A stretch of 64,000 nucleotides of DNA from a virus (lineage: Duplodnaviria > Caudoviricetes): positions 1,515-65,514 of IMG/VR virus record IMGVR_UViG_3300044728_000202, one strand, 5' to 3'. How positions within the stretch are numbered: position 1 is the stretch's first letter; each line of letters starts with the position of its first letter. Both the position numbers and the translations under genes were made by a program. Shown in pieces: positions 4,356 through 52,614 of this stretch. The notes under the pieces are model-generated. The model worked only from the letters and a program-made list of their open reading frames with translations, did no database searches and was not told the DNA's origin.

Positions 4356-6563
4356 ATGAATATGCGTCCCGACCTATTCGACGAGCGTGCGCCAGGCGCG
4401 ACGTTCGACATCTACAACATTGGCTGGATCGACTTCGAAACGAAGGGCAGCCTGCCGATCGCCACCGTCGGCACCGACCGCTACGCCCGCAACGCCCGCT
4501 CGCTGATGATCGGGTGGTCGATCGGCACCGACCCGGTCATCGTCACGACGGCGCAGCATTTCGAACTGCCGCTGCGCTGGGCCGACCTGCCGCACGAGCT
4601 CCGCAAGTTTTTCGACCGCGTGGCGCGCGGCGACGCCATTTTTTGCGCTCACAACGCCGGCTTCGACCGGGCGATCTGGAACTACGCCACCGAGGACTTT
4701 CCGGTCCTCGAGCCGTGGATGATCATCGACACGCGGGTTCAGGCGGCGGCGTCCGGCCTGCCGGCGGCGCTCGACGCGGCCTGCCGCTATTCCGGCGCCG
4801 AGATCCTCAAGGACACGCGCGGCAAGGATCTGATCAGGCTGTTCTGCCTTCCCGATTCGACGGCGACGCCGGACAGCCACCCGGACGAATGGCAGGACTT
4901 CCTGCGCTATGCCGGCGTCGACATTGGCGCGATGCGCGAATTGTTCCGCCGCACACGCCAGCTGCCGATCGCCGAGTGGCGCGAGTACTGGGCGGCCGAG
5001 GCGATCAACGACTACGGCGTGACGATCGACCTGCCGCTGGTCGAGGCCGCCGCCAAGATGGCGGAGGCCGACAAGCGGATCTCGGCGCGCGATCTCGACG
5101 ACCTGACCGACGGCGCCGTCGAGACGGTCGACCAGGTGCAGCGCATCATCATCTGGCTGAAGGCGCGGCTGCCCGACGACGGCGTCCACATCCTGATCTC
5201 GGAACACGAAGAGATCGACCTCGACACCGGCGAGATCCTCAAGCCACAGAAGACCTCGCTGACGCGCGATCGTGTCGTCCGGCTTCTGGCGTACCTCGAC
5301 GCCCTCGAAGCCCCCACAGAGCTCACGCGGGCCGCCCAGCGGGTGCTTCAGATCCGACTCTACGGCGGCTCGAAGACCCCGGCAAAATTCGGCAAGATGC
5401 TGACCCAGCACGTCGGCGGCGTGATCCGCGGGCAATACGTCTTCAACGGCGCTTCGCAGACCGGAAGGTTCTCCGCGAAAGGCGTGCAGGTGCACAACCT
5501 CATGCGCACCGCCTTTGATCACGAGATCGACGCGATCGACGCGCTGGTCGGCGGCGCCTCGCCCAGTGAATTCGCCGGGCTCGGCGACGACACGCCGATC
5601 TCGCGCAAGCTGTCGCTGCTGATCCGGCCGAGCCTGATCGCACCGCCCGGCCATGCATTCTGTTGGGGTGACTGGTCGAACATCGAGGCCCGCATCACAC
5701 CCTGGCTGGCCAAGGACCCGGAGGCCGATGCGCGCCTCGCGATTTTCCGGGCGGTCGACAACAAGACGGAGAAGTTCGACGTCTACACGCGCACCGCGGC
5801 ACGGCTATCGCACCTTGAGCTCGGAGAGGTCACCGAGACCATCCGCCAGCGCGGCAAGGTGGTCGAGCTCGCCTGCACATTCGGCGGCGCCCGCAACGCG
5901 CTGCTGTCGATGGCGGCGAGCTACGGCATGCACTTGACCGATCAGGAGGCTGACGCCGCAGTCGCCGTGTGGCGCGAAGAGAACCCATGGGCGCAGCGTT
6001 TCTGGGGCCGCCACGACGATCGCGGATCCTATGGCCTGTGGGGCGCCGCCAACTGCGCCATGGAGACGCCGGGGCAAGCCTTCAGCGTCGGCCGCATCGT
6101 CTATGTCTACCTGAAAGACTATCTCGGCGGATCGCTGCTTTGCCGGCTACCGAGCGGCCGCTATTTGACCTACCGCCGCATCAAGTGGGAGCGCGTCGAA
6201 GAGGTCGACGAAGAGACCGGCGTCATCACCAGTGTTCGCTATGAGCTCATGTTCAGCCGCGACATGGGCCGCATAAAGCTGTGGCCCGGGCTGCTGTGCG
6301 AGAACGCCACGCAGGCCGCCGCCGCCGACCTGATGCGCGGCACGCTGCGCCGTCTGGTCGAGACCGATTGGGAAGGCGTCGTTTCGCTGCACACCCACGA
6401 CGAGATCGTCTGCGAGGCGCCGGAGGACTTGGCCGGCTATGTCGCCGCCGAGCTCAACGACACCATGGAAGCCGGCTTCGAGTGGACGGAGGGGCTGCCG
6501 ATCGCCGCCGACACCAAGATCGGCCGCTGGTACAGCAAATCGCGGGGGTCGATCGGGTTATGA
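4356..6563 (+). CDS. family A DNA polymerase with 3'-5' exonuclease
   Basis: Exo DFET, AHNAGFDR, YAGVD; pol TGRFS, DWSNIEAR, RQRGKVVELACTFGG, HTHDEIV. Confidence 0.95.
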   Translation: MNMRPDLFDERAPGATFDIYNIGWIDFETKGSLPIATVGTDRYARNARSLMIGWSIGTDPVIVTTAQHFELPLRWADLPHELRKFFDRVARGDAIFCAHNAGFDRAIWNYATEDFPVLEPWMIIDTRVQAAASGLPAALDAACRYSGAEILKDTRGKDLIRLFCLPDSTATPDSHPDEWQDFLRYAGVDIGAMRELFRRTRQLPIAEWREYWAAEAINDYGVTIDLPLVEAAAKMAEADKRISARDLDDLTDGAVETVDQVQRIIIWLKARLPDDGVHILISEHEEIDLDTGEILKPQKTSLTRDRVVRLLAYLDALEAPTELTRAAQRVLQIRLYGGSKTPAKFGKMLTQHVGGVIRGQYVFNGASQTGRFSAKGVQVHNLMRTAFDHEIDAIDALVGGASPSEFAGLGDDTPISRKLSLLIRPSLIAPPGHAFCWGDWSNIEARITPWLAKDPEADARLAIFRAVDNKTEKFDVYTRTAARLSHLELGEVTETIRQRGKVVELACTFGGARNALLSMAASYGMHLTDQEADAAVAVWREENPWAQRFWGRHDDRGSYGLWGAANCAMETPGQAFSVGRIVYVYLKDYLGGSLLCRLPSGRYLTYRRIKWERVEEVDEETGVITSVRYELMFSRDMGRIKLWPGLLCENATQAAAADLMRGTLRRLVETDWEGVVSLHTHDEIVCEAPEDLAGYVAAELNDTMEAGFEWTEGLPIAADTKIGRWYSKSRGSIGL

Positions 6564-6994: not shown

Positions 6995-7968
6995 AATTCG
7001 GGCTATCTCGCGACCTGGCCGCCAGCTTCGCCGGGATGGGTGACGATGAGGCGCTCATCGAGTTGCTGGAAAACCTGCCGAAGCGGCGCTGCGCGTCGGC
7101 GGCGGCGTTCCGCAACACGCTGATGGGCCACGGCTTCGTTGCGGTCAATCCGCTGTTGCTGAGCGATTCCGCCGGGACTGAACAGCAGACCCGTGGTTAC
7201 TTCCAAGCGATCGCGATGGCCATCAAGGGCGTTGTCGCCGACGGTCGCATGATCGATTTCGGCTATGTGCCGAACGCCATCATCAAGGCCGAATCGACAC
7301 GCGCTCGCGAACCCTTCGAGGCCGGCGAGTTGCTGCACCCATATGATGACGGGTGGCTCGGCTTGATGGAGTGGGAGGGCGGCTACAACGGCTATTTCGT
7401 GGTGCCGCACAGCGACAAGGGCGGCAAAGCCACCCTCGTCGTCGAGTTGTACGGCACCAAGGCGCCCGACGGCATCGACATCATCCTGATCTATGACGCC
7501 GTCTCGATCCTCCCGGCGCCCGGCGAGACACGGCTCGGGCCGTTTCCGATGAAGAGCTACCTGCGGTCGCCGGAAGAAGAGCAAGCCTCGGACCAGATGC
7601 GGGCTTCGAACAGCCTCGACCCGCTGGTCTGCATGCTGCGCATGCTGGCCGACGCATCGATCCCGGTCACCCGGTTTGAGGCGCCGGAGAAGCTGAACAA
7701 GGCGCGCGCCAAGTCCGGCAAGCTGCCGATCCCGCCGCACAATGTCGTGCACAGCGGCGACTACGTCAGCCAGATCACATCACACGCGCGTTCGCGCGCA
7801 TCCGATCGCAACGGCCATCACGCCTCGCCGATCGCCCACTGGCGCCGTTCGCACCTGCGCCACCTGCCAGGCCGCGTCGTCAAGGTTCGCTCAAGCAAGG
7901 TAAATTGGCGCGGCGAGACCGAGCTCCGCAGGTTGTTTTCGAAAATTAAGCGTGAGCTCCGGCAGTAA
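6991..7968 (+). CDS. hypothetical phage protein
   Basis: 325-aa ORF, C-terminal HASPIAHWRRSHLRHL motif. Confidence 0.8.
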   Translation: MKFGLSRDLAASFAGMGDDEALIELLENLPKRRCASAAAFRNTLMGHGFVAVNPLLLSDSAGTEQQTRGYFQAIAMAIKGVVADGRMIDFGYVPNAIIKAESTRAREPFEAGELLHPYDDGWLGLMEWEGGYNGYFVVPHSDKGGKATLVVELYGTKAPDGIDIILIYDAVSILPAPGETRLGPFPMKSYLRSPEEEQASDQMRASNSLDPLVCMLRMLADASIPVTRFEAPEKLNKARAKSGKLPIPPHNVVHSGDYVSQITSHARSRASDRNGHHASPIAHWRRSHLRHLPGRVVKVRSSKVNWRGETELRRLFSKIKRELRQ

Positions 7969-7993
7969 TTTCACGACGTGGCTCGAAAAGCAT

Positions 7994-8021
7994 TTGACAG
8001 CGGAGCCAAAGCAATTAACGT
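7994..8021 (+). promoter_or_regulatory. sigma70-like promoter
   Basis: TTGACA (7994-7999), 16 nt, TAACGT (8016-8021), intergenic. Confidence 0.6.
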
Positions 8022-8107
8022 AACTGAGAACGCCCGGCTCGGCAGCCAATCCAAAACCGGGCGTTCTCATGTACTCGTCAACTGACAGTCAACGGAGGTT
8101 TCCAATT

Positions 8108-9076: not shown

Positions 9077-10082
9077 TCAGTCAGCGGATTACGCGCTGAT
9101 CATGCATGGCGCGATCTATCACGTCGCGCTGAAGTTGGAGGGGGCCGCACCAGCGGCCCTTTCCTTCTCTGATCTGGTGCGCGACTACTCCCACCCCAAC
9201 CCCTCGGACCTGGCCCGCGTCAAGCGCCACGAGCACATCGAGAGCGACTGGATGGCCCGACTGTGGATCATCCGCCGCGCCGTCTCGATGCTCGAGGGCC
9301 TGACCGTCGACGGCGACATGGTGTCGTTCGCCCCCGGCAACGGCTTCGACGACCTGACATGGGCGGAAGGCAAGATCGGACGGCCGCAGGCCGAGCCGGC
9401 GCTGCGTGACGCCTTCAGCCAGATTGACGGCGCCTTCGCCGACGGAATCCGCGACGGCCTCGGCGATCTTTCCGAGCTCCGCGAATCGATGCAGGCGTGG
9501 GGCTGGATCCCCGAATTCCCTGCGTTGGTCGACGAGCGTGGCGTCATCCTGGCCGGACATCGGCGCATGGCGGTCGCCAAGGAGCTCGGCATCGCGCCGG
9601 TGGTGACGGAGCTCCGGCTCGGTTTCGGCGACCCCGGCGACGCGGCCCGCTTCAAGCTGGCGATTGCCTCCAATATCGGCGGCAGGAAGCTGGGCCCGAG
9701 CGACCGCAAGCGCCTCGCCACCTATCTGTATTCCGACCCCGAATGGTCGCAGCCGAAGCTCACAGCGGCGCTCAGCGCGGCGCGTGAGCGGCCGCTCGCC
9801 GAACCACCGCCGCCGGTCAAGGTCAAGCGGCGGCCCTACGCCAAGCACGCCATCCTCGACAAGGTGAGCGATCCGATCATGGCTGAGCTCGACGTCAAGG
9901 TGCACGCGCTGATCGAGGAGGGCCTGCCGCGGCCGGATATCGCCAAGCGGCTCGGCATCGGCGAGCATATCGTGCAGCTGGCGACGCAGCGCTATGTCGG
10001 CCGGATGCAGGAACGCAACACAGTCCACGCCTGCCCGCAGTGTGGGCACATGCACGGGGGTTCTCATGCGCAAGAAATCTGA
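9069..10082 (+). CDS. second ParB-like domain protein with HTH and C-terminal Zn ribbon
   Basis: PALVDERGVILAGHRRMAVAKELG; HTH GLPRPDIAKRLGIG; CPQCGH. Confidence 0.75.
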   Translation: MLDQSADYALIMHGAIYHVALKLEGAAPAALSFSDLVRDYSHPNPSDLARVKRHEHIESDWMARLWIIRRAVSMLEGLTVDGDMVSFAPGNGFDDLTWAEGKIGRPQAEPALRDAFSQIDGAFADGIRDGLGDLSELRESMQAWGWIPEFPALVDERGVILAGHRRMAVAKELGIAPVVTELRLGFGDPGDAARFKLAIASNIGGRKLGPSDRKRLATYLYSDPEWSQPKLTAALSAARERPLAEPPPPVKVKRRPYAKHAILDKVSDPIMAELDVKVHALIEEGLPRPDIAKRLGIGEHIVQLATQRYVGRMQERNTVHACPQCGHMHGGSHAQEI

Positions 10083-14349: not shown

Positions 14350-14634
14350 TTACGGGTTGATGTTGAGCTTCTTCGTCATCACGTCGACGATCCGATCGAT
14401 GCTCTGCCTGTTGGTCTCGGTCTGCTGTTGCAGGATCGTGATCCTGTCGTCCATCTTGGCCAGCCGCTCGACCGTGTAGGCCGCCCCGCGGGTCTCCATG
14501 ATCGACACCCGGGTCTCCAGCTTGACCATGTAGGCCAGCACGCTGGCGCCCGCCGCGCCAATCGCCAACGCCTGGGCGATCAGGAAGTAGACCAGCGTCG
14601 AGTTGTCCCTGACCCACGTCTTGAGCTCCGTCAT
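14350..14634 (-). CDS. single-TM coiled-coil lysis protein (holin/antiholin or spanin-like)
   Basis: One N-terminal hydrophobic helix then coiled coil, directly upstream of endolysin. Confidence 0.6.
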   Translation of the reverse strand: MTELKTWVRDNSTLVYFLIAQALAIGAAGASVLAYMVKLETRVSIMETRGAAYTVERLAKMDDRITILQQQTETNRQSIDRIVDVMTKKLNINP

Positions 14635-17600
14635 TCGGCGTACCCCGGCAGCCCGGATTCCAGCCGACGCCGCAATGCCTCGTTCGAAATGTAGACGCCG
14701 TCGCCGCGCTTGCGCTGCGCCTCGGCGATGGCGTGGTGCTTGACCGACGCCGACAGCGACGAGCTCTTGATCGGCATGGTGCGCCCGAACGCCGATTTGT
14801 TGAAGCTGCGGATCTTGGCCAGCGCCTCCACCCGCCCCTCGGTATCGCCGGTCTTAACGGCGGCCGCGTAGGAGTTGATGTAGGCCTGACGGTTGACCTT
14901 GATGCGCCGCTCGGCGCTCTTCATCGCGCCGGTCTTGGCCCACTGCTCGGCCAGGTGCGCCGGCGTGAAGCCCATCGCCTGCGAGATGCCGGCCCACCAG
15001 CCGACGTCCTCGGGCGCCATCACCGTCTCGCCGCTGCCGGTGACCAGCCCCTCGGTCATCAGGCCGTAAGCCTTCATCAGATCCTTGAAGACCTTTGGCG
15101 ACGCCGTCTGCACGCCCGACCACAGCCCCTCCTCGGGGATCTTGTAGGCGCCTTGCAGCACCTTCTCGACGATCGCCGTCGGAGCTCCGACCATCTGGGT
15201 GAGCAGCCACAGATAGGTGTCCTCGCCGGTCTCGAGATCCTTGTTGGGCGAGCGGAACCATATGTCCGGCATGCCGACCCGCGAGGTCAGATCGACGCCG
15301 GTCATGGCGCCGACCGCGCCGTGCAGGATGACGTTGCCGAGCACCGGCCCGAACATATCGAGCACGGCGCTTTCGAACTTCGCCTGCACTTCGAAGGGGT
15401 CGTCCTCCGGCTCGTCGCCGCCGAAGATCGCCGCGAACAGGGTCGACATCACGCCATAGGCAAAGAACGCCGTGTTGTAGCCCGCTACAGCGGTTCCGCC
15501 GGCGACCAGTGCCTGCATGCCCAGAATGCCGCCAAGCTGGTAGCGCGCCTCCCTGCGGGCCTGTGGCGTATCTCCCTTGAACGACTGGTGGATGTCCCGA
15601 CCAAGTCGATAGATCATGTTGACCTGGTAGGAGCGCATCGACATCAGAACGCGCGAAACCGGGCCTTGCATCATCCGCGGCCGGCTCGAATTGGAATAGT
15701 CGAAGTGCGTGCGCCAGGTCATGTCCGAGGCAATGTCGATCGCCTCGGCCGGTGTGCGGCCTTCCTCGATCGCCAGCCGGAAGGCGGCGAGCGCGGTGAC
15801 CCGGCGGTTGATGACCTCGGCCTTATGGAAAAGTATCCCAAGCTTGGCCATCACATAGGACTTGGTCGGCGAATAGGTCAGGCCGGTCTCGCCGACACCT
15901 TGGATGTCGACGCTCTGCGTGCGGTCGATGACGCCGGATTCCTCCCACGCCCGCATCGCCGCCTCTTCCGAATTGTTGAGGCCGCTGTCGGAGATTGCGT
16001 TCTTGGCCGCCCGGGTGATCGCTGCGGCCGCCTTGGTCATGCTGCCGAAGCGGCCGGCGAGCACCGGGATTCCAACCATCGGCGTCTGCGCCAGATTGAC
16101 CATGGCGGCCGCCGGCGACAGGCCGAGATAGTAGGCGAACGCCGACATCGAGGCCCACTGCGCCCAGTTCTTGCCGGTCGGGTTCATCACCCACTTGTGG
16201 CGCTTGTTGAGCTCGTCAGACAGCCGCGTCGCCGGCATCTGTTGGTCCTGCGGCGCCTCGCGCGCCGCCTCGGCGGCCTGATCGGTCAGATCCTCGAGCT
16301 TCAGCCCGTGCTGCAGCCGCGCCATCTGGTGGGCGGCGTGGAACATGTGGTTGGCGTAGACGCGCAGCGCGTCGGCGCTGTGGCCCTCGATCATCTTGCG
16401 GTGCAGTTTGCGGCTGCGCACCGACTGCGCCGGCATGGTGCGGAGGTAGCGCTGCCAGATGGCGTCCATGATGGCGCCCTTGGTCGGAATATTGGGCAGC
16501 ATCTGTTCGATCTCGGCGATGAACGAAGGCTTGGCGGCTTGCGTCTGGTCGCTGGTCTTCTCGGGCAGCACGCCGGTCTCGACGGTGTGCCCGGCCGGCA
16601 GCCCGGCGCGCACCGCCTTCTCGTTCTCCTGCATTTCGAACTGGCTCTCGGCCAGCGCGAAGTGGACCAGCTTGCCCGCCGCGTCGCGCTCGGAAACGAA
16701 GTAGGTTCCGAACCGGCCGAGCGGGAAATACGGCGGCTTGAGCTTGTTGGTCTCCAGCCGCAGCCGGAGCTCGGCGACGGTCGAACGGGTACGGCGGCGG
16801 CCCTGCAGCCGCTCACGATCGGCGGCCTCGTTTAGCAAACGCCGCTCCTCGGCGTGCTCGGCAGCGGTGGTCAGGCCGTTGGCGTGGCGCAGATCGGCGT
16901 CGCGCAGCTTGCGGCCGAGTTGCCGCTCGCGCTTGCGATCGGCGATGTCCTGTACCTCCTGCACATTGGCGAGCAGGATCTGGTCGAGCTTGTCGTTCTG
17001 CTCGGTGTAGGAATCGCGGACCTCGCGATAGAGCTCCTGAAAGCCGGTAGGCAGCGCAAGGAAGCGGTTGCGCAGGTCGGCATAGTCCGGCTTCAGCATG
17101 TCGTTGAGATCGTCGGGGTCGGTCTCCGCCTTGGTGGCGTCGTGCATCAGCAGAGCCAGGTTGACGGCGTGAGCTCGGCCGCCGCGCGCCGCCAGCTTGC
17201 GCCACTTCTGCACGGTCTTGTCGGCGCTGCGGTGGATGCCGTCGCGGAACGTATCCATGATCCGCTTTTCTTTGATGTAGTCCTCGACGTGCGCCTTGAT
17301 GGAGGCCGGGGCCAGGTCGGGGAAGTAGTTGAGGTAGACGGCGCCGAGCGCCGCCGGCGTCATCTTCGACCAGACGCTCTTGATGCGGTCGAGGAAGCGC
17401 TGCTCGGTCGGATGCGCGATCGTGTTGATGACCGGCGTGACGACGCCGCGGAACAGCCGCCCGATGTCGGGCGCCTCTAGCCCTGGTTCTGAAACATCTC
17501 CGGCAGTTCCGCCTCGTGCTCCGCCGTCCACTCCTTTGGCAGATCCTTGTCGTAGGCCGACTCCAGATATTGTTCTCTCGTAAGTGGAAGGTTGGATTCC

Positions 17601-26450: not shown

Positions 26451-27685
26451 TAGCGGGTGATCCCGATCTGCGCGACCTGCGCCGCCCGCATGATGTCCGG
26501 CGGCCACTGTTCCGGCGGGATGCCCGCCTGCGTCAGCGCCTGACCGACCTGCTGCGGGTTGACGCCTTGCTTGATGGCCTGCGACGCCTGCGCCAGATAT
26601 TGCTGCTTGTCGCTGTCCGGCACCTGGCTGGTGGCGTCGACCGGCGACGCCGCCTGCCCGCCGATCGGCTCGGCCGGCGCGGCGGCCGGCGCCTGCGACA
26701 CCTCGTCGAGCGGTGCCTGTACGCCAAGCTGTTCGTCGGTCGGCTGCTCCTCGTCGGCCGGAGCCGGCGCCGCCGCGTCGCTGGCCGGCGTGTCGAACTG
26801 CACCTGTTGGCCGGTATCCGGGTCGACCGCGACCTGCGGCTCGGCCGGCGCTGCGCCGCCCCTTCCGAAGCGGGCGTCGACGATCTGCTTGGCCATCGCC
26901 TCGCGCTGTTCCGGCGTCATGGCGCCGACCTCTTCGTCGAGCAGCGCGCTCTCTTCGATGCGCTTGCGCTCTTCCTGAACGGCGTTCTGGTACTGCGCCT
27001 GCGTCAGCGCGCCGGTGCCGACGCCGAGCTCAGCCTCGGCCGCCTTCTTGCGGACGTGGGTGCGGACTTCGAGATCCGCCTTGGACTCGGCCGCCTTGGT
27101 CGCCTCCTGCATTTCGAAGGCGGCCTGCGGGTTGGCGAGGTTTGAGAAGAAGCTCGCCAGATCGTCGACGGCGACGTTCTTGGTGTGCTCCTTGCCGTCC
27201 GGCGTGTTGAACGTCAGCCGGTAGCCCGTAACCTGGCCGGCTTCCTCGTCGTAGTATTCGGCCGCCGACAGCTTGCCGTCGATGCCGTAGCCCTTGGTGT
27301 TGGCGGCCGAGGTCATGTCGGCGATGCCGCCCTCGATGTCGCCGGACTGCAGCTTGCCGAGGCCGCTGGTGAACTTCTTGGCGGCGCGCTTGGTGGTCGA
27401 GCTCTCCGCCCAGTCCACCCACGCCTGCGCCTTGGCGGGGTCGCCCTCCTCGAGATATCGGTTGGCGATCAGCGGCACCATCTCGTTGGCGTAGCGCGAC
27501 ATGAAGTCGCCCGGCTCGGCGGTGCCGGCCGCTACGTCGGCGTCATATTGCGCCTTGCCCTCCTGGGTGATGCCCTCGACGTCGCTTTCCAGCTTGTGCT
27601 GCTTGCGAATGCCGCGGATCCGATCGCCCAGATCGATACCCTGCGAGAAGCCCTGCGCGAAGGCTCCCAGCGCGATGCCCAGCAT
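26450..27685 (-). CDS. putative internal virion (ejection) protein
   Basis: Helical Ala/Gln-rich protein between pilot protein and giant protein. Confidence 0.7.
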   Translation of the reverse strand: MLGIALGAFAQGFSQGIDLGDRIRGIRKQHKLESDVEGITQEGKAQYDADVAAGTAEPGDFMSRYANEMVPLIANRYLEEGDPAKAQAWVDWAESSTTKRAAKKFTSGLGKLQSGDIEGGIADMTSAANTKGYGIDGKLSAAEYYDEEAGQVTGYRLTFNTPDGKEHTKNVAVDDLASFFSNLANPQAAFEMQEATKAAESKADLEVRTHVRKKAAEAELGVGTGALTQAQYQNAVQEERKRIEESALLDEEVGAMTPEQREAMAKQIVDARFGRGGAAPAEPQVAVDPDTGQQVQFDTPASDAAAPAPADEEQPTDEQLGVQAPLDEVSQAPAAAPAEPIGGQAASPVDATSQVPDSDKQQYLAQASQAIKQGVNPQQVGQALTQAGIPPEQWPPDIMRAAQVAQIGITR

Positions 27686-44670: not shown

Positions 44671-47073
44671 TCATGCGGGCGGCGGCCCGCCTATTCCCAA
44701 CTGTTGCTCGGGTCCCGCTCCGGGCTGCGGGGGTTGCTGCTGTTGCACGCCGGGCTGCTCCTGCTCGGCCTGCGCCTGTTGCGCGGCGGCGGCTTGCTGC
44801 TGTTGCGCTGCCGCTTGCTGCTCCTGTGCTGCCTGCAGCTGGGCCAGCTGCGCGGCCTCCTTGTCGGATTTGCTGACGAAGCCACTTTCCGACAAAATGT
44901 AATCCGCCACCTGGGCGGCGGCCGGCACGGCAATCGCCACCTGCGCGGCGTCCAGCGCCTTCTGCTGAGCATCGACGTTGTGGCCGGGGATCTTGGCCAG
45001 CGCCTCTTGCGCCAGCGCCATGGTCTGCTCGGCCTTGGCCTGCGCCGAACGGGCGTCGCCGATCGCCTTCTGCAGGTTGGCCTCGAGCATGGCTTGCTGC
45101 ATCTGCGACTGCTTGGCCATCGCAGCCATGCGCTGCTGATCCTCCGGCGAAGGGTTCTCCTTCTCCTCGGGGTCGAATTGGCCGGTGACGCCGCGGATGC
45201 GCTTGACGATCTCGTCGCGGTTCGGAAGGTCCATGTTCTCGACGGCCAGGTCGAGCAGCTGGATCGAGATCTCCGGCGGCAGCCGCGTCATCGCCTCCAT
45301 GAGCTCGTCGGCGGCGGCCTGCCGGATGGTCGCGTGCCAGGCGGATTCGGAGATGATGTAGTCGGCCTTGGTGCGGGTAATATCGTTTTCAGGGAGCCCG
45401 TCGTTGACCTCGACATAGTCGGACTTGCCGCGCATCGAGGTGATGCGGAACTGCTTCGGCTCGTCCATGAACTGCTCGATATTGGCAAGCTGCTTTTCGC
45501 CGTGCACCTGTTGGGCGAACAACAAATTGTCGAACAATTTAGCAGTGGCCAGGCTGCCCTGATCCTGCCTACGTTGTATCGCCACGCCTGACGTGGCGTT
45601 GGTCTTGCGGCCGAGCAATTCGTCGGTGACGCCGCTGGCCTGTTGGATCATGGCGATGTCGCGTGACATCAATTCGAGGTGCCATTGCGCCAGATCACGA
45701 TCAGCGTTGAGGATGATCTCCTTGCCTGGCACCTTGCGGATAATGGCGTCGGGCCGGCTGACCTCGTCCTGAAATTCCTCGAAGGTCATATCGTCGGGAA
45801 GGGCGTCGTAATCCATTATGATCTTCGACGTCGAGAGGATGTGCAGAGCCTTGGAGGCGCGTTTGTTCACATCGACTTGGATGTCCTTGAGGCGACGGAT
45901 CACACCGTAGGGGGCGCCGTCCTTGCCACGCCGATAGCCCCAGATCGGGGTGAGCGGGAAGCGGTTGTGGCGGTAGGGACTTGGCGAGAACCACAGCATC
46001 CCGGCGTCGACGAATAGACCGACATGCATGCGCATGACGGTCTTCTCGACGACCTCGGATTCACCTTGCTCGACCTGATCCTTGTGGCCGCCCGACTGCG
46101 GGTCGAACAGTTCGCCGGAGAACTCGCCGCCACGCATCTTGCCGGCGGTGACCGGGCGCTTGTACCAGCCCTCGATGATCCTGACGCGCAGCCGCTGGAA
46201 GCCATCGACTAGCCGGTTGGATGCCGTCCCATAGATCTGGTCGAGGGCGTTCTCCTGGCTGTCCATCGCCTCGTCGCCGTACTCGTCGTGCTGCATGAAG
46301 TCGTCGGCGTTGGTCGCCGAGGATCTGAGAATGTCAGCGCGGTCGGGAAACAGGGCGATAGCGACGTCGAGGTCCACCCATTTGGAGCGGAAGATGTACC
46401 TTCCGTCTTCAACGTCGAGGTTTGTGGCGGCCGTATCGTGAAGGACATTGCGCCAGCTTTCGTAGCGTGTGTAGAGCGGCTCGTCCTCGCCGTCGCCGTC
46501 ATAGCCGTCCTCGATCCAGCCGATGCCGACCTTGATCGAATCCTCGAAGGCGCGCGAAATGTGGAAGTGCTCGCGATTGACGTCGCTGAGATACTTCATC
46601 AACGCGGTCTTGTTGGCGGCGGGCTTGGAATGCTGCTTCTTGCGCGGCAGCACTTTGAAATCGGTGCGTGATCGCTTCTGCGAGCCGGTGATCCAGTCGA
46701 TGCTGGTCGAGATCACGTTGTAGACCAGCGGCACCTGGCCGCGGTCTTCCAGCTGCGCCGCGTCGGCCTCGCTCCACTGGATGTTGTCGTAGAAGTCCTC
46801 GTCCTCCGCCATCTCGGCGCGGTTCTCGGTCTGCCGCTCGAGCTCGTTGGCGTAGCAGGCCAGCATCTGGCTGTGCAGTTCCAACATTTCCGGGGCGTCG
46901 AGGTTCTTGCTCTTGCCCCTGCCGCTGCCGCCGCTGTTGCTGCGATCGGGCTGGGTCAGGGCGGTGCGGGGGTTCTGCGAGGCCGGCATCGGGTCGCCAT
47001 AGCCGCCGCTCTCGCGGTCGCGCCTGGCCCTCACAGAGCCATCGCGCGCCCGCAGGTCAAACATCTGTGCCAT
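44671..47073 (-). CDS. portal protein (P22-like)
   Basis: EDEDFYDNIQW, RGQVPLVYN, FPLTPIWGY...PYGVIRRLKDIQ..VNKR, NATSGVAIQRRQ. Confidence 0.92.
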   Translation of the reverse strand: MAQMFDLRARDGSVRARRDRESGGYGDPMPASQNPRTALTQPDRSNSGGSGRGKSKNLDAPEMLELHSQMLACYANELERQTENRAEMAEDEDFYDNIQWSEADAAQLEDRGQVPLVYNVISTSIDWITGSQKRSRTDFKVLPRKKQHSKPAANKTALMKYLSDVNREHFHISRAFEDSIKVGIGWIEDGYDGDGEDEPLYTRYESWRNVLHDTAATNLDVEDGRYIFRSKWVDLDVAIALFPDRADILRSSATNADDFMQHDEYGDEAMDSQENALDQIYGTASNRLVDGFQRLRVRIIEGWYKRPVTAGKMRGGEFSGELFDPQSGGHKDQVEQGESEVVEKTVMRMHVGLFVDAGMLWFSPSPYRHNRFPLTPIWGYRRGKDGAPYGVIRRLKDIQVDVNKRASKALHILSTSKIIMDYDALPDDMTFEEFQDEVSRPDAIIRKVPGKEIILNADRDLAQWHLELMSRDIAMIQQASGVTDELLGRKTNATSGVAIQRRQDQGSLATAKLFDNLLFAQQVHGEKQLANIEQFMDEPKQFRITSMRGKSDYVEVNDGLPENDITRTKADYIISESAWHATIRQAAADELMEAMTRLPPEISIQLLDLAVENMDLPNRDEIVKRIRGVTGQFDPEEKENPSPEDQQRMAAMAKQSQMQQAMLEANLQKAIGDARSAQAKAEQTMALAQEALAKIPGHNVDAQQKALDAAQVAIAVPAAAQVADYILSESGFVSKSDKEAAQLAQLQAAQEQQAAAQQQQAAAAQQAQAEQEQPGVQQQQPPQPGAGPEQQLGIGGPPPA

Positions 47074-47537: not shown

Positions 47538-47816
47538 CTATTTAGCCGAGTCTGTAAACTGTTCCGATGTACGGGTCATAAACACCCACGCCGCGCGGGC
47601 CCGGCGGCAGTCGTCGTCGGAGCCGATTTCGATGAACTCCGCGGCGGTCGGCCGCCGGAGATAGCCGTGCTCGAAGATCAGCCACTCGCCGCAGGCGAAG
47701 CACACCGTCGCGTCGCCGTCGACCGGGGCGCATTCCTCGCCATCGGTGGCATTGGTGGCGCGGTCGTGGCGAGTGCCGCACCACGCGCAATTCGAGTAGA
47801 AGACGTGCCCGGTCAC
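47538..47816 (-). CDS. Zn-finger-like hypothetical protein
   Basis: GTG 47816 (GTGA overlap); CAWC...CFAC. Confidence 0.65.
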   Translation of the reverse strand: MTGHVFYSNCAWCGTRHDRATNATDGEECAPVDGDATVCFACGEWLIFEHGYLRRPTAAEFIEIGSDDDCRRARAAWVFMTRTSEQFTDSAK

Positions 47817-48088
47817 GTTTCGATCGGCCACATGAACAGCGGCGTGTTCTCGCCCATCCACGCGCCGGTGGTGTTGAAGGTGAAGGTCTCCATCGCCTCC
47901 TCTTGGTCCATGCCGTCGCGCTGCATCAGGATCTCGATGCACTTGTTGCAGTCGTAGACCACCAGCGACGGCTGACCGCAGCGCTCGGCGACGCCGATGA
48001 TGGCGTCTTCAAACCCATCGGCGAGCAGCGCCTCCTCGTTGTGCGCGGCGACCCATTCGCGGACGATCTCGATCTCTTTCGGCGTCAT
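47813..48088 (-). CDS. hypothetical phage protein
   Basis: LLADGFEDAIIG...VVYD...FNTTGAWMGENTP. Confidence 0.8.
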   Translation of the reverse strand: MTPKEIEIVREWVAAHNEEALLADGFEDAIIGVAERCGQPSLVVYDCNKCIEILMQRDGMDQEEAMETFTFNTTGAWMGENTPLFMWPIET

Positions 48089-48252
48089 CGGTTGTGCCTG
48101 TGATAGGTGCGGTTGTAGCCGGTCGGTGCTTTGTCACCCAGCTTCACCTCGTCGATGATGCGCTGGATCGCCACTGACGGCAGCGGTGGTAGCTGCAGCG
48201 GCAACTTCTCGACCTTCGGTTGCTTCTTCACAAATTTACGTGGGTGCCTCAC
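48085..48252 (-). CDS. YhhA-like triceptide (cyclophane RiPP) precursor peptide, 55 aa (not in ORF track)
   Basis: MRHPRKFVKKQPKVEKLPLQLPPLPSVAIQRIIDEVKLGDKAPTGYNRTYHRHNR; GTGA and ATGA overlaps on both sides. Confidence 0.75.
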   Translation of the reverse strand: MRHPRKFVKKQPKVEKLPLQLPPLPSVAIQRIIDEVKLGDKAPTGYNRTYHRHNR

Positions 48253-48329
48253 TGCAGCACCCACAGCAGCACGATCACCAGCACGACGCCGGCGATAAAC
48301 CAGGTTCCCCAGGCTTCCGGCCGCATCAT
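48249..48329 (-). CDS. 26-aa single-TM peptide (not in ORF track)
   Basis: MMRPEAWGTWFIAGVVLVIVLLWVLQ; overlaps both neighbours by 4 nt. Confidence 0.55.
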   Translation of the reverse strand: MMRPEAWGTWFIAGVVLVIVLLWVLQ

Positions 48330-49291
48330 GCCCGCCTCACCGGCGCCGGGCGCGAGAAGGTGACCGGCACGACGGTGTTGTCGAGGGTATCGTCCTGCAC
48401 CGTCGGGTAGACGATGAAGTCGATCCAGCCGATCGTCGGCGAGACGATCTGCACGGTCCAGCTGCTGGTGCCGAGCGCGATGTTGTCACCCTGGATGACC
48501 AGATCGAGCATCGGCGATTGATCGACCGCGGCGAAGTCGATGCGCGAGATGCGCAGCGTGTCGACCGACAGGTTCGGGTGCAGCAGCATGCCGTTGGCCG
48601 GCTCCCAAGGCGGCTCGCTTGCCGGCTTGGCGTATATCCATTCGGCGGTGGTGGTCGGCAGTGGCGTCGGCGGCGTCGGCGGCTCCGGCAGCACCTCGGC
48701 GGCGGGCGTGAAGGTGACGACGACCAGACCGGCAACAGCGGCCTGATCGCTCGGGCTGATCAGGAAATCAAACCAGCGCGCCTCTGGGGTGCTGTGGTAG
48801 GCGACGGCGTCGACCGTCCACGTCACCGCGTCGATGGCGATGAAGTCGCCGGGCTTGACCAGTTCCAGCATCGAGGTCTGGTCGAGCGCGGCGCCGTCGA
48901 TGGCGGCCACCGACAGCGTCTTCAGCGTCAAATTGCCCTGGATGATCTGGCCGTCGATCGGCAGCCCGCCGTCCGGCTTGGAATAGTTCCAAGGCGCAGC
49001 GGTGGTGGTCAGGCGTGGCGGCTCCGGCGGGATGACGTCCGATGGGATCTCGTCGGCGGTGCCGGCGGGTGCCTGCAGCACCGCCGGGTGGGTGATGATG
49101 AGCTCATAGGCATCGGCCAGCGGCGCGGTCATCAGCATCAGGTAGCTCTGCAGCGACGGCCGGTCGACGACGCCGCTGACCACGATCTCGACCATCGATG
49201 GGCTGTCGAGCACGGTGTAGGCCTCGACCGGCTCGCTGAACGGGGCGATCGGCGCGTCGTCTGTGATGATCGCCATGATCTTGATGGCCAT
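48326..49291 (-). CDS. hypothetical protein with two tandem ~90-aa repeats
   Basis: TTTAAPWNYSKP...GDFIAID...WTV...WFDF repeated as TTTAEWIYAKP...GDNIALG...WTV...WIDF. Confidence 0.8.
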   Translation of the reverse strand: MAIKIMAIITDDAPIAPFSEPVEAYTVLDSPSMVEIVVSGVVDRPSLQSYLMLMTAPLADAYELIITHPAVLQAPAGTADEIPSDVIPPEPPRLTTTAAPWNYSKPDGGLPIDGQIIQGNLTLKTLSVAAIDGAALDQTSMLELVKPGDFIAIDAVTWTVDAVAYHSTPEARWFDFLISPSDQAAVAGLVVVTFTPAAEVLPEPPTPPTPLPTTTAEWIYAKPASEPPWEPANGMLLHPNLSVDTLRISRIDFAAVDQSPMLDLVIQGDNIALGTSSWTVQIVSPTIGWIDFIVYPTVQDDTLDNTVVPVTFSRPAPVRRA

Positions 49292-49339: not shown

Positions 49340-50077
49340 TTGTCATTAACCAAAGCGCTTGGCGAGCTCGCCCAGCAATTCAACCCACAACAGAACGTCA
49401 TCACATTCCATTGCCCGCCGGGCCTGCTCGGCGCGGTGGCGCCGCCGCAGCCTGCCGGCGACATCCTGCCGGACTGGTACAAGAAACTGCCAGCGGTCGA
49501 CCCGGAGGTGGTGACGGTCGAGGTCTGGGGCGTCACCGTCAAACGCTGCATGCCGTTTCTCGACGCGCTGACCAGCGGCTGGGTGCTGACGCTGCCGGCC
49601 GAGGTGCATTGCGAGGTGTCGGCCGACGGCCAGACCGTCAGCCACAAGCACAACATGCCGTTCAACCTGATCGACGGCCACTTGGGCTACCAGGTCAAAG
49701 GCTCGCACTGGGGCGAGACGCCGCCGTTGAAATTCAACAATGTGTGGACGATCAAGACGCCGCGCGGCTGGTCTTGCCTGTTCGTGCCGCTGCTCAACCG
49801 CCAGCACAAATGGTTCTCGGCGGCGAGCGGGTTGGTCGACACCGACGTCTACCATCACCCCGTCAACCTGCCGTTCTTCATGCTGCCGGAGGCGTATGGC
49901 AAGAGCTTCACGCTGGCCAAGGGCACGCCGCTGGTGCAGGTCATCCCGGTCAAGCGTTCCAATTTCCGGGCGGACATCCGCGAAGCGACGTCGCAGGAGA
50001 ACCGTGCCACCGACAATGCGGCGCTGAACCTGCGCGCCGAGGCCGGCTGGTACAGGAAGTTCGTGCGCGTCCGCTAG
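49340..50077 (+). CDS. DUF6065-like / dUTPase-like fold protein
   Basis: GGAGG + TTG 49340; TVKRCMPFLDALTSGW, KFNNVWTIKTPRGWSCLF, GLVDTD, KGTPLVQVIPVKR. Confidence 0.65.
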   Translation: MSLTKALGELAQQFNPQQNVITFHCPPGLLGAVAPPQPAGDILPDWYKKLPAVDPEVVTVEVWGVTVKRCMPFLDALTSGWVLTLPAEVHCEVSADGQTVSHKHNMPFNLIDGHLGYQVKGSHWGETPPLKFNNVWTIKTPRGWSCLFVPLLNRQHKWFSAASGLVDTDVYHHPVNLPFFMLPEAYGKSFTLAKGTPLVQVIPVKRSNFRADIREATSQENRATDNAALNLRAEAGWYRKFVRVR

Positions 50078-50906: not shown

Positions 50907-51049
50907 GCCAGCCTCACGAGACACAGCATCAGCAACAGCGCGCCGAGGCCGGCGACGCAGGCCCCGACCAGCGCCAGCGCCAGCCAGAACAACGCGGGGT
51001 GGACCATGATGGTGCCGCGCTCGACGTTCCAGTAGGTCAGCGGTTTCAT
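50903..51049 (-). CDS. small membrane protein
   Basis: ATG 51049 overlaps terL stop; hydrophobic C-terminus. Confidence 0.55.
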   Translation of the reverse strand: MKPLTYWNVERGTIMVHPALFWLALALVGACVAGLGALLLMLCLVRLA

Positions 51050-52614
51050 GCGGCCAGTCCTGACCTGTTCCTGCGGGGCGTCCAGCGGCCGGCGCCGGCA
51101 CCGAAGCGCAGGTGGCGGATCTGCGCGTGCTGGCGGATCGCATCGGCGGCGTGCTGGTGGCCATTCTTGGCAACCAGCGGCATCCAGACGCCCATGCGGT
51201 CGTTCCACTGCTTGGAGAAGCCTTCGAGGTGGCGCAGCCCTAGCGAGCATTTCTCGGCGTCGATGTAGTAGGTCGAGAACGCCTCGCGCAGCTGGTCGAT
51301 CGCATCTGGGACGTGAGGCGTTCGTTGCACGGTCTCGAGATTCGACATACCGAGATCACGCAACAGGTCGACGTAAGTCTTGAGGTGCTCCGCACCAGGA
51401 CGACGATGGTTCGCATCGTGGGGAAGATAATGCCACCCATAGACATATGGCCGCTCCCGCAACTCCCTGACGTAGAAACTCGGCGGCTCCGACGCTGCCT
51501 CGATATAGTCGATGAAGTGCTGGCCTGGCCCAAAATCCTGGTGAAACCAGATCGCGGTGTCGTCGGAGGTGCCGAGATCCCAGAAGGTGTTGACCGGCCG
51601 ACCGGGGTCGTAGGGCACGCGGGTGATGCGCCGCTCGACCCGAGCTCGCGACAGCTGCGCCGACAGCCATAGCCCGTCGGTCGAGACGGTAAACGCCTCT
51701 TCCAGCGTCGACGGGTACTGGCTGAACATCTTGGCCTGATCGTCGCCGAACAGGTTGAGGCGGGTGAGCACGTACCAGGCGCGCTTCTCCAGCGAGATCG
51801 GCCGGTTGATCTCGCCCTCCAGCCGCCAGAAGTAGGCTTCGTCGATCGGCGAGATCACTGCGGCGGCCGGATCCGCTTCGTACTCCGGGGCGTCCCACCA
51901 GCTGGCGAAGTGCAGCTTCCACTCGAGCGCGGAGGGCGTGCGCTTGGTCTCGTCGTGGCGCTGAGCATTTCGGACCATGTCGGCGAAGATGCCGTAGGGC
52001 GTCTCCATGGTGCTCTCGATGCAAGTAATTCCATGGCGATCAACGGATGGAAGCGATCCGGTTTGAATTTCGGTGGCACGGTCGGGATACCTCTGGCAGA
52101 TCTTGCCGTATTCGGAGACGTGCAGATATTGCAGCGTTGTGCCGCGGGTGCTGGTCGCGACGATCAAAGAGCTATCGGTATTGAAGGCGAGCTCGGTCTT
52201 GGTCAGGTACTTCAGCCCGACCATTTCTTTGACGACCGGCGGCAGCTTGTCCCAGGCGAAGCGCACCTTCTGCTCGAAGATGACGCGGGCCGTGTCCTCG
52301 TCCTGGGCGATGATCGCGGCCTGGGTGTTCGGCTGGAACAGGCAGGCATCCAGCATCATCAGCTGGATGACGGTGGAGAAGCCGCGCTGCCGCGCCTTGG
52401 GGATCAGGTTCCTGTAGTGGATGGCGCTCAAGAAGCGCTGCTGTTCCGGCCACGGGTGGAAGGTCACCACTTTGCCGCGCTTGTCGGTGATCTTGTAGAG
52501 GTGGTTCAGCCGCCAGTGGGCGTCGCCGATCGCCGCGCTCATCTCCTCCGGCTTGAGCTCCTCAAACGGCTTGCCCCAGTAGGACGGCAACTGCTTGACG
52601 TTACGCTGCAGCAC
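51046..52614 (-). CDS. terL: terminase large subunit
   Basis: PKARQRGFST (Walker A), LHVSEYG (Walker B), IESTME, FWDLGTSDDTAIWF, HYLPHD, HAADA. Confidence 0.95.
   Translation of the reverse strand: MLQRNVKQLPSYWGKPFEELKPEEMSAAIGDAHWRLNHLYKITDKRGKVVTFHPWPEQQRFLSAIHYRNLIPKARQRGFSTVIQLMMLDACLFQPNTQAAIIAQDEDTARVIFEQKVRFAWDKLPPVVKEMVGLKYLTKTELAFNTDSSLIVATSTRGTTLQYLHVSEYGKICQRYPDRATEIQTGSLPSVDRHGITCIESTMETPYGIFADMVRNAQRHDETKRTPSALEWKLHFASWWDAPEYEADPAAAVISPIDEAYFWRLEGEINRPISLEKRAWYVLTRLNLFGDDQAKMFSQYPSTLEEAFTVSTDGLWLSAQLSRARVERRITRVPYDPGRPVNTFWDLGTSDDTAIWFHQDFGPGQHFIDYIEAASEPPSFYVRELRERPYVYGWHYLPHDANHRRPGAEHLKTYVDLLRDLGMSNLETVQRTPHVPDAIDQLREAFSTYYIDAEKCSLGLRHLEGFSKQWNDRMGVWMPLVAKNGHQHAADAIRQHAQIRHLRFGAGAGRWTPRRNRSGLAA

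Follow-up and report, generated by a model that had tools for sequence, protein, structure and literature searches.

Why should a phage carry the precursor of an enzymatically modified peptide and none of the enzymes that modify it? This question is raised by a short gene, here termed yhhA, on the minus strand of a 64,000-nucleotide stretch of phage DNA (Duplodnaviria; Caudoviricetes). The stretch, referred to below as the window, comprises bases 1515-65514 of the 65,514-bp IMG/VR record IMGVR_UViG_3300044728_000202, for which CheckV gives a completeness of 100%. The gene represents YhhA, a known family of precursors for peptides that are made on ribosomes and modified after translation (RiPPs), in an unprecedented setting: it is phage-borne, maturase-less, recurrent and under selection.

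The yhhA gene and the enzymes missing from the phage genome

A first-pass annotation made from the letters of the sequence had pointed to an unlisted gene of 55 codons that is coupled on both sides and closes with three aromatic-X-Arg motifs, and it had assigned this gene to the YhhA family. Both statements were borne out. The open reading frame (ORF) is present (Table 1), its start overlaps the TGA of a transmembrane mini-ORF of 26 codons (GTGA junction), and a gene of 91 codons begins with an ATG that overlaps the stop of the ORF (ATGA junction), pointing to coupling at both ends. The C terminus of the peptide reads ...SVAIQRIIDEVKLGDKAPTG-YNRTYHRHNR-stop. When compared with NCBIfam, the peptide matched NF041705 (RIPP_cyclo_YhhA) with an E value of 8.2e-13 and 48.3 bits over model positions 1-33 of 33. 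NF041705 is an equivalog model with a curated cut-off of 36 bits, and it was the sole family matched at E <= 10. Because the match spans the full model and exceeds the cut-off, the YhhA-like gene is real and a chance pattern is excluded. The gene is thus predicted to encode a genuine YhhA-family precursor. A six-frame search of the whole record with the same model returned this gene as the single hit.

The peptide shows the two parts expected of such a precursor. The S, V, A, R and E residues of the leader box are invariant in our alignment of YhhA peptides (A1), and the box also occurs in bacterial precursors that adjoin YhhB. It conforms to the pattern S-V-A-x-x-R-x-I-x-E-V, which is expected 8-13 residues ahead of the core; the linker between leader box and core is 9 residues long in the phage peptide and 9-13 residues long in bacterial copies. 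The core sits at the extreme C terminus with the stop directly after it, aligns with those of 31 bacterial precursors and is identical to the core of most of them. Three features support the ORF as protein-coding. The N-terminal stretch RHPRK..KKQPKVE, further upstream, recurs in another phage (P0002/L039); the copies in other phages differ mainly at synonymous sites; and GC content at third codon positions (GC3) of yhhA is 0.70-0.81 as against 0.39 at second positions (GC2). The GC3 of yhhA lies below that of the neighboring genes. Longer, fused forms of the peptide were not found at E <= 0.01, which is weak evidence, and a scan for promoters and terminators around yhhA gave nothing above chance.

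That a radical S-adenosylmethionine (SAM) enzyme, YhhB, forms cyclophanes on YhhA had been stated by the same annotation and is confirmed by the literature: YhhB generates Tyr-to-Arg and His-to-Arg three-residue cyclophanes, and YhhC is a 2-oxoglutarate (2OG) hydroxylase (PMC11002830, PMC11499958, PMC12186529). For the YhhA/YhhB/YhhC pathway, these three papers cite Sugiyama et al. (JACS 2022, doi 10.1021/jacs.2c00521). The annotation had also seen neither a SPASM enzyme nor a 2OG oxygenase in the window. This absence extends to the whole 65,514-bp record, in which searches for Radical_SAM (PF04055), SPASM (PF13186), YhhB (NF041707), YhhC (NF041706) and the HExxH hydroxylase (TIGR04267) returned nothing at E cut-offs of 1 to 10. 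A cognate maturase elsewhere on the contig, which would have spoken against an orphan precursor, was therefore looked for and not found. As the record is rated complete, yhhA is an orphan in a complete phage genome.

Bacterial yhh cassettes, orphan phage copies and a proposed role

Each species was represented by one genome in a scan with sequence patterns, and neighboring ORFs were clustered at the 31 bacterial loci that it yielded, which belong to Pseudomonadota, Binatota, Nitrospirota, Acidobacteriota, Thermodesulfobacteriota and Actinomycetota. At these loci the YhhA homologue belongs to a cassette that encodes YhhB, YhhC and a further hydroxylase and that is linked with the Septu proteins PtuA and PtuB (Table 1). 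The suggestion that a host system of this kind might be defense-linked thus gained substance, since the PtuA/PtuB pair stood beside yhh at 27-28 of the 31 genome loci and at 10/10 of those metagenome loci whose downstream flank measured 3.6 kb or more. YhhB and/or YhhC adjoined the peptide in 25 of 37 metagenome loci. PtuA proteins from six further loci, representing six lineages, all gave PDLC00304 as their best PADLOC model (1e-135 to 1e-149), the next model being weaker by about 75 orders of magnitude; with L024 included, which like L027 is a locus from Erythrobacter or Novosphingobium, PtuA was sampled from seven lineages altogether. The same best model across lineages indicates that the Yhh-linked Septu is one lineage travelling with the cassette. 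Our literature search found no paper linking cyclophane RiPPs with Septu. At just one bacterial locus, L036 from a metagenome-assembled genome (MAG) of Pseudomonadales, could no YhhB be detected next to the peptide; this locus does have YhhC and PtuA, and its cassette may have decayed or been rearranged.

Orphan copies were confined to another kind of context. All system genes were missing at 6/6 IMG/VR loci and at 12/37 metagenome loci, and orphan loci made up 0/31 of the bacterial genome loci. The surroundings of the orphans are phage-like, with runs of small co-directional genes in at least nine backgrounds; terminases, Mor, an Acb2/Tad1-hairpin protein, TROVE, GapR, a Zeta-toxin-domain protein and a DUF2800 exonuclease were among the neighbors. 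The orphans share sequence traits, namely Q-R-(I/L)-I-D-E-V and either a linker of the form ..DAPLxG or one additional Ser at the C terminus, and the N termini of the phage copies are very different from one another: basic, proline-rich, Cys-rich or fused to a helix-turn-helix (HTH) domain. When the orphan label was mapped on the weakly resolved peptide tree, 4 changes were required as compared with 14.6 in shuffles, and none of 500 shuffles was as low, suggesting that the orphan copies cluster.

Pairwise ratios of nonsynonymous to synonymous divergence (dN/dS) among the orphans, calculated over leader box and core, were 0.01-0.35, with dS often saturated. These values indicate purifying selection on the leader box and the triplets of the orphan copies. 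A divergent phage copy, L007, ends in FDR-A-HNR-HNR and has retained three triplets. The core is thus conserved as well as the leader, which fits a peptide that is really matured and used. If the peptide instead acted unmodified, for example as a basic tail binding nucleic acid or protein, or were a functionless passenger derived from a host, the lack of a maturase in the phage would agree with this; the GC3 below that of the neighbors would fit a recent acquisition, and yhhA was found in none of the sequenced phage isolates searched. Such a peptide would hardly be expected to stay under purifying selection over many phage backgrounds with saturated synonymous change and in independent genomic contexts. 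Nor would it be expected to keep a leader box that, to our knowledge, has no role beyond recognition by the maturase, or to share a conserved cassette of a membrane mini-ORF plus yhhA among unrelated phages. We therefore consider an unmodified or functionless peptide very unlikely.

Two observations on individual contigs are added here. In L082 (405..680, P0010) and L064, a YhhA leader and core stand behind an HTH_11-like domain of about 60 residues (weak Pfam hit); the YhhA tail seems to be portable. In L039, the series of small genes that includes the orphan yhhA also contains, 3.2 kb upstream of it, a gene for an Acb2/Tad1-hairpin protein (4458..4823). The Acb2/Tad1 hairpin is an anti-CBASS/anti-Thoeris sponge fold. 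No Acb2/Tad1 domain was detected in the genome of the phage studied here.

In retron Ec78, an accessory module of reverse transcriptase (RT) and multicopy single-stranded DNA (msDNA) sequesters PtuAB until infection (PMC12819146). This restraint, taken together with the tie of the yhh cassette to PtuAB, led to the proposal that matured YhhA silences PtuAB. As YhhB, YhhC and HExxH are not encoded by the phage, any maturation of its peptide would have to be carried out by a yhh-bearing host with its own enzymes. Given the role of the leader box and the identity of the core with that of most bacterial copies, maturation by host YhhB, YhhC and HExxH would be the simplest reading. In detail, the leader box would be recognized by the cyclophane-forming YhhB of the host. 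The matured host peptide would be an intracellular regulator holding PtuAB silent, as the RT-msDNA of retron Ec78 does, and its loss upon infection would release the PtuAB nuclease. The phage copy, produced from phage transcripts and matured by pre-existing host enzymes, would make good this loss and so prevent the abortive response. The phage peptide would then be an anti-defense mimic of an antitoxin-like peptide. Host maturation, the binding or control of PtuAB and the direction of the effect are steps that we infer. The reading we prefer, with a confidence falling just short of an even chance, is that phage YhhA, once matured by the host, functionally mimics the host's own YhhA and holds the linked PtuAB nuclease silent.

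The peptide could also be matured by the host and serve an end that has nothing to do with Septu, either as a metabolic or physiological top-up or as a cationic cyclophane for host takeover or phage exclusion, the Septu neighborhood being coincidental. A precursor-only precedent exists in phage PqqA (PMC7678222), the literature found in our search states no function or biological role for YhhA triceptides, and yhhA lies in a late-looking operon. A coincidence is difficult to reconcile with a yhh-PtuAB pairing that spans six phyla or more, with gene order fixed and a single lineage of PtuA, which argues for more than a defense-island neighborhood. In addition, no conserved exporter or protease was found beside the cassette at the 31 bacterial loci, and YhhB is rare and patchy in the manner of defense genes (4 of 301 sampled Sphingomonadales species). 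A role independent of Septu accordingly appears distinctly unlikely.

If the peptide does act on the Septu-linked system, it might do so by the opposite route, starving the system instead of feeding it, which would still amount to anti-defense. As a decoy, the phage leader would bind host YhhB (and YhhC/HExxH), outcompete the host precursor and starve Septu of an activator or cofactor peptide. The full conservation of the leader box in phage copies, the sequence type of their own with the ..DAPLxG linker or the added Ser and divergent N termini, and the defense linkage of the host cassette are all in keeping with a decoy. For this purpose, however, the leader alone would suffice, yet the core triplets of the phage copies are as conserved as those of bacteria and mostly identical to them. 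Since they share this core, phage and host peptides would end up as the same product, which weighs against a decoy, and we regard it as unlikely.

Several points weigh against a host-matured, PtuAB-silencing mimic. The linkage between YhhA and PtuAB is genomic only. The gene lies between terminase and portal, probably on a late transcript, though many anti-defense genes are early. Such a mimic also presupposes that the phage meets yhh-Septu cells. No copy was found in sequenced phage isolates: with the peptide as tblastn query, neither 50,697 phage isolates nor 72,556 plasmids gave a match at E <= 1, the sensitivity being limited by the 33 residues of the conserved part, and there is consequently no culturable test system at hand. 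The peptide tree comprises just 34 columns. Finally, the loci were retrieved by leader and core patterns, and the apparent conservation in these parts is partly built in; the synonymous divergence is free of this retrieval bias and argues that constraint acts at the protein level.

Two independent genomic lines nevertheless converge, namely the linkage of yhh with Septu in bacteria and the selected, maturase-less precursor in unrelated phages. Their convergence provides a testable hypothesis for an intracellular role of YhhA and for the control of a Septu variant. In its general form, that YhhA triceptides gate a Septu nuclease and that phages supply the precursor alone and let host enzymes make the silencing ligand, the hypothesis is tentative and stays somewhat below an even chance. 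If true, it would describe a RiPP-controlled immune system and a new kind of anti-defense, in which the mimic is post-translationally matured by the very host that is being disarmed. Phages borrowing the peptide-modifying enzymes of their hosts would be a new form of immune escape.

The accessory slot and the neighboring genes

The surroundings of yhhA were compared with those in 80 IMG/VR relatives found via the portal protein. The gene was present in just 2 of the 80, which are the two closest (portal identity 89-91%). In distant relatives (50-56% portal identity) the terminase, a gene for a 135-amino acid (aa) protein and the portal gene are contiguous. Relatives at 71-78% portal identity have the 91-aa gene added, giving the order terL, 91-aa gene, 135-aa gene, portal. 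The window and the two closest relatives contain an extra insert that consists of the 321-aa gene, the mini-ORF, yhhA and the DUF6065 gene. The gene yhhA is therefore patchy among close relatives and situated in a variable slot, as an accessory gene would be. Because the insert is restricted to the window and its two closest relatives, yhhA is best read as a recent accessory acquisition in the variable slot between terL and portal.

Five phage backgrounds (the window, L003, L004, L039 and L042) share the last 22 bases of yhhA (48085..48106, ..CACAGGCACAAC(C/A)GATGAC) and the ATGA overlap, save for one A for C in L042. This shared end uses the rare Arg codons AGG and CGA, and the genes downstream of it are unrelated. 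An end and junction that are identical while the downstream genes differ suggest a cassette boundary or a recombination joint, and with it a small mobile cassette.

Table 1. Coordinates of features in the window, and genes at the 31 bacterial yhh loci
Feature	Location	Strand	Remarks
yhhA-like gene	48085..48252	(-)	55 codons plus stop, GTG start; ORF, NF041705 match, phage and bacterial homologues
Leader box SVAIQRIIDEV, residues 26-36	48145..48177	(-)	alignment A1, bacterial precursors, purifying selection
Core YNR-T-YHR-HNR, residues 46-55, three aromatic-X-Arg triplets	48088..48117	(-)	invariant in A1
Transmembrane mini-ORF, 26 codons (MMRPEAWGTWFIAGVVLVIVLLWVLQ)	48249..48329	(-)	ATG overlaps stop of 321-aa gene, TGA overlaps yhhA start
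91-aa gene, phrog_13182	47813..48088	(-)	PHROG hit 2e-24; ATGA-coupled downstream of yhhA
321-aa gene	48326..49291	(-)	first gene of minus-strand run; ORF; internal repeat
DUF6065/phrog_7084 gene	49340..50077	(+)	only plus-strand gene in minus-strand block; TTG start, GGAGG 5 nt upstream
Portal gene	44671..47073	(-)	lower edge of accessory slot; annotated portal in related phages
Large terminase gene	51046..52614	(-)	upper edge of accessory slot; phrog_2, phrog_26724
Radical SAM protein YhhB, directly beside peptide	30/31 bacterial loci		NF041707, 482-502 bits, cut-off 445
2OG oxygenase YhhC	31/31 bacterial loci		NF041706, 239 bits
aKG-HExxH beta-hydroxylase	29/31 bacterial loci		TIGR04267
HNH protein PtuB, convergent	27/31 bacterial loci		PADLOC PDLC00339, 5e-87
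ATPase PtuA, convergent	28/31 bacterial loci		PADLOC PDLC00304, 1e-154

Upstream of yhhA, the transmembrane mini-ORF has a homologue of about 65% identity in the unrelated phage contig L039 (MRTRPEAFGTWLVAVVVLVLILLWIGVL, about 7950..8034), where it is likewise GTGA-coupled to yhhA, and a similar mini-ORF precedes yhhA in L003 (about 9820..9906). All of them encode single-helix peptides of 26-28 residues. The mini-ORF was absent from 31/31 bacterial yhh loci, and the two-gene set of mini-ORF and yhhA is thus a feature conserved in unrelated phages. The 321-aa gene gave no family hit in profile searches. Its product contains two internal repeats of about 110 residues with a proline-rich linker between them. 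It accompanies yhhA in L003, L044, L047 and L049 and is missing from the next relatives, indicating that it was gained together with yhhA in the phage lineage.

The 91-aa gene lies downstream of yhhA in phages of the window type and in L004 and is present without yhhA in near relatives. Its family comprises 4897 cluster representatives at E <= 0.001, labelled viral only in the Atlas. A gene that belongs to so large a family and is found without yhhA is no obligate partner of it. The AlphaFold2 (AF2) model of the 91-aa protein has a predicted local distance difference test score (pLDDT) of 95 and no fold match above noise in the PDB. We considered a PqqD-like leader-binding partner, but Foldseek gave no match at E <= 0.001, and the presence of the gene in phages that lack yhhA speaks against it as well. 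With VIA-align, the best Z score was 3.4, and PqqD and TbiB1 scored 2.4-2.6, which is noise level; the idea was dropped. An unlisted ORF of 92 codons (47538..47816, minus strand) is GTGA-coupled to the 91-aa gene and encodes two CxxC pairs in a zinc-ribbon-like arrangement (GC3 0.84). The longer ORF listed there (134 aa) probably starts too early, because its overlap with the 91-aa gene has a GC3 of 0.42.

The DUF6065 gene has 1461 homologues, many of them from alphaproteobacterial MAGs. The possibility that it encodes a hidden 2OG/cupin oxygenase was rejected, since the AF2 model of the protein (pLDDT 81) is a dUTPase-like barrel resembling trimeric dUTPase/dCTP deaminase barrels (Foldseek E 1e-4).

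The remainder of the phage genome encodes a major capsid protein (PF13252), portal, large terminase, family A DNA polymerase, SNF2 helicase, primase and a PD-(D/E)XK exonuclease. It also holds an ORF of 3958 codons (14631..26507, minus strand, GC3 0.86). Bcep22-like podophages have giant virion proteins of this type. Neither an integrase nor a resolvase was found when the phage was checked for a temperate lifestyle, and it has no tRNA genes. Among sequenced relatives, those closest in DNA sequence (about 67% identity) are Sinorhizobium phage PBC5, Agrobacterium phage Atu_ph08, Ralstonia GP4-like phages and two "Microcystis" phages. An alphaproteobacterial host is no more than hinted at by a GC content of 65%, the Q-R-(L/I)-I leader variant that the peptide has in common with sphingomonad copies, and the best hits of the DUF6065 gene, which are alphaproteobacterial. 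Five sphingomonad genomes that carry yhh were searched for the major capsid protein of the phage, and none had it.

Comparison with known systems

The closest counterpart is the YhhA/B/C triceptide pathway itself, with which the phage peptide shares the full-length model match, the leader box and three Tyr/His-X-Arg triplets. It differs from that pathway in being encoded by a phage whose genome lacks YhhB, YhhC and HExxH, so that no YhhB stands beside it. It further differs in its basic N terminus, its shorter ..KAPTG linker and the 26-aa membrane mini-ORF that precedes it.

The first-pass annotation knew of no described case of a phage-borne precursor without its maturase. For YhhA this stands, as no paper on an orphan phage YhhA was found; in its general form it needs to be narrowed, because phage PqqA, another precursor for a host radical SAM enzyme, has been reported in methylotroph phages from Lake Baikal (PMC7678222). 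PqqA is also a small precursor for a radical SAM (PqqE) pathway, and that enzyme was not reported on the same contig; another viral group in the same paper encodes radical SAM proteins. Unlike YhhA, PqqA feeds cofactor synthesis and was read as a metabolic auxiliary gene (PMC7678222), whereas YhhA is part of a cassette linked with an immune nuclease, and no metabolic role is known for its product.

Antitoxin mimics of phages offer a second comparison. The pseudo-ToxI RNA of PhiTE acts against ToxIN (PMC3475682), and a mimic encoded by ICP1 acts against DarTG (PMC11481870). In both, as would be the case for YhhA, a phage copy of the neutralizing component of the host silences an abortive-infection toxin. 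These mimics act directly as RNA or protein, whereas a YhhA mimic would first need modification by the host.

With respect to the nuclease, the nearest parallels are the retrons Ec78 and Eco7 with their PtuAB (PMC12819146, PMC12673091), against which phage T5 has the anti-retron factor Rad (bioRxiv 10.1101/2023.03.15.532788). There, as is proposed for yhh, PtuAB has been co-opted as the effector of a restraining accessory module, and phages carry counter-measures. The accessory module of the retrons consists of RT, non-coding RNA and msDNA, whereas in yhh it would be a cross-linked, hydroxylated peptide together with three maturases.
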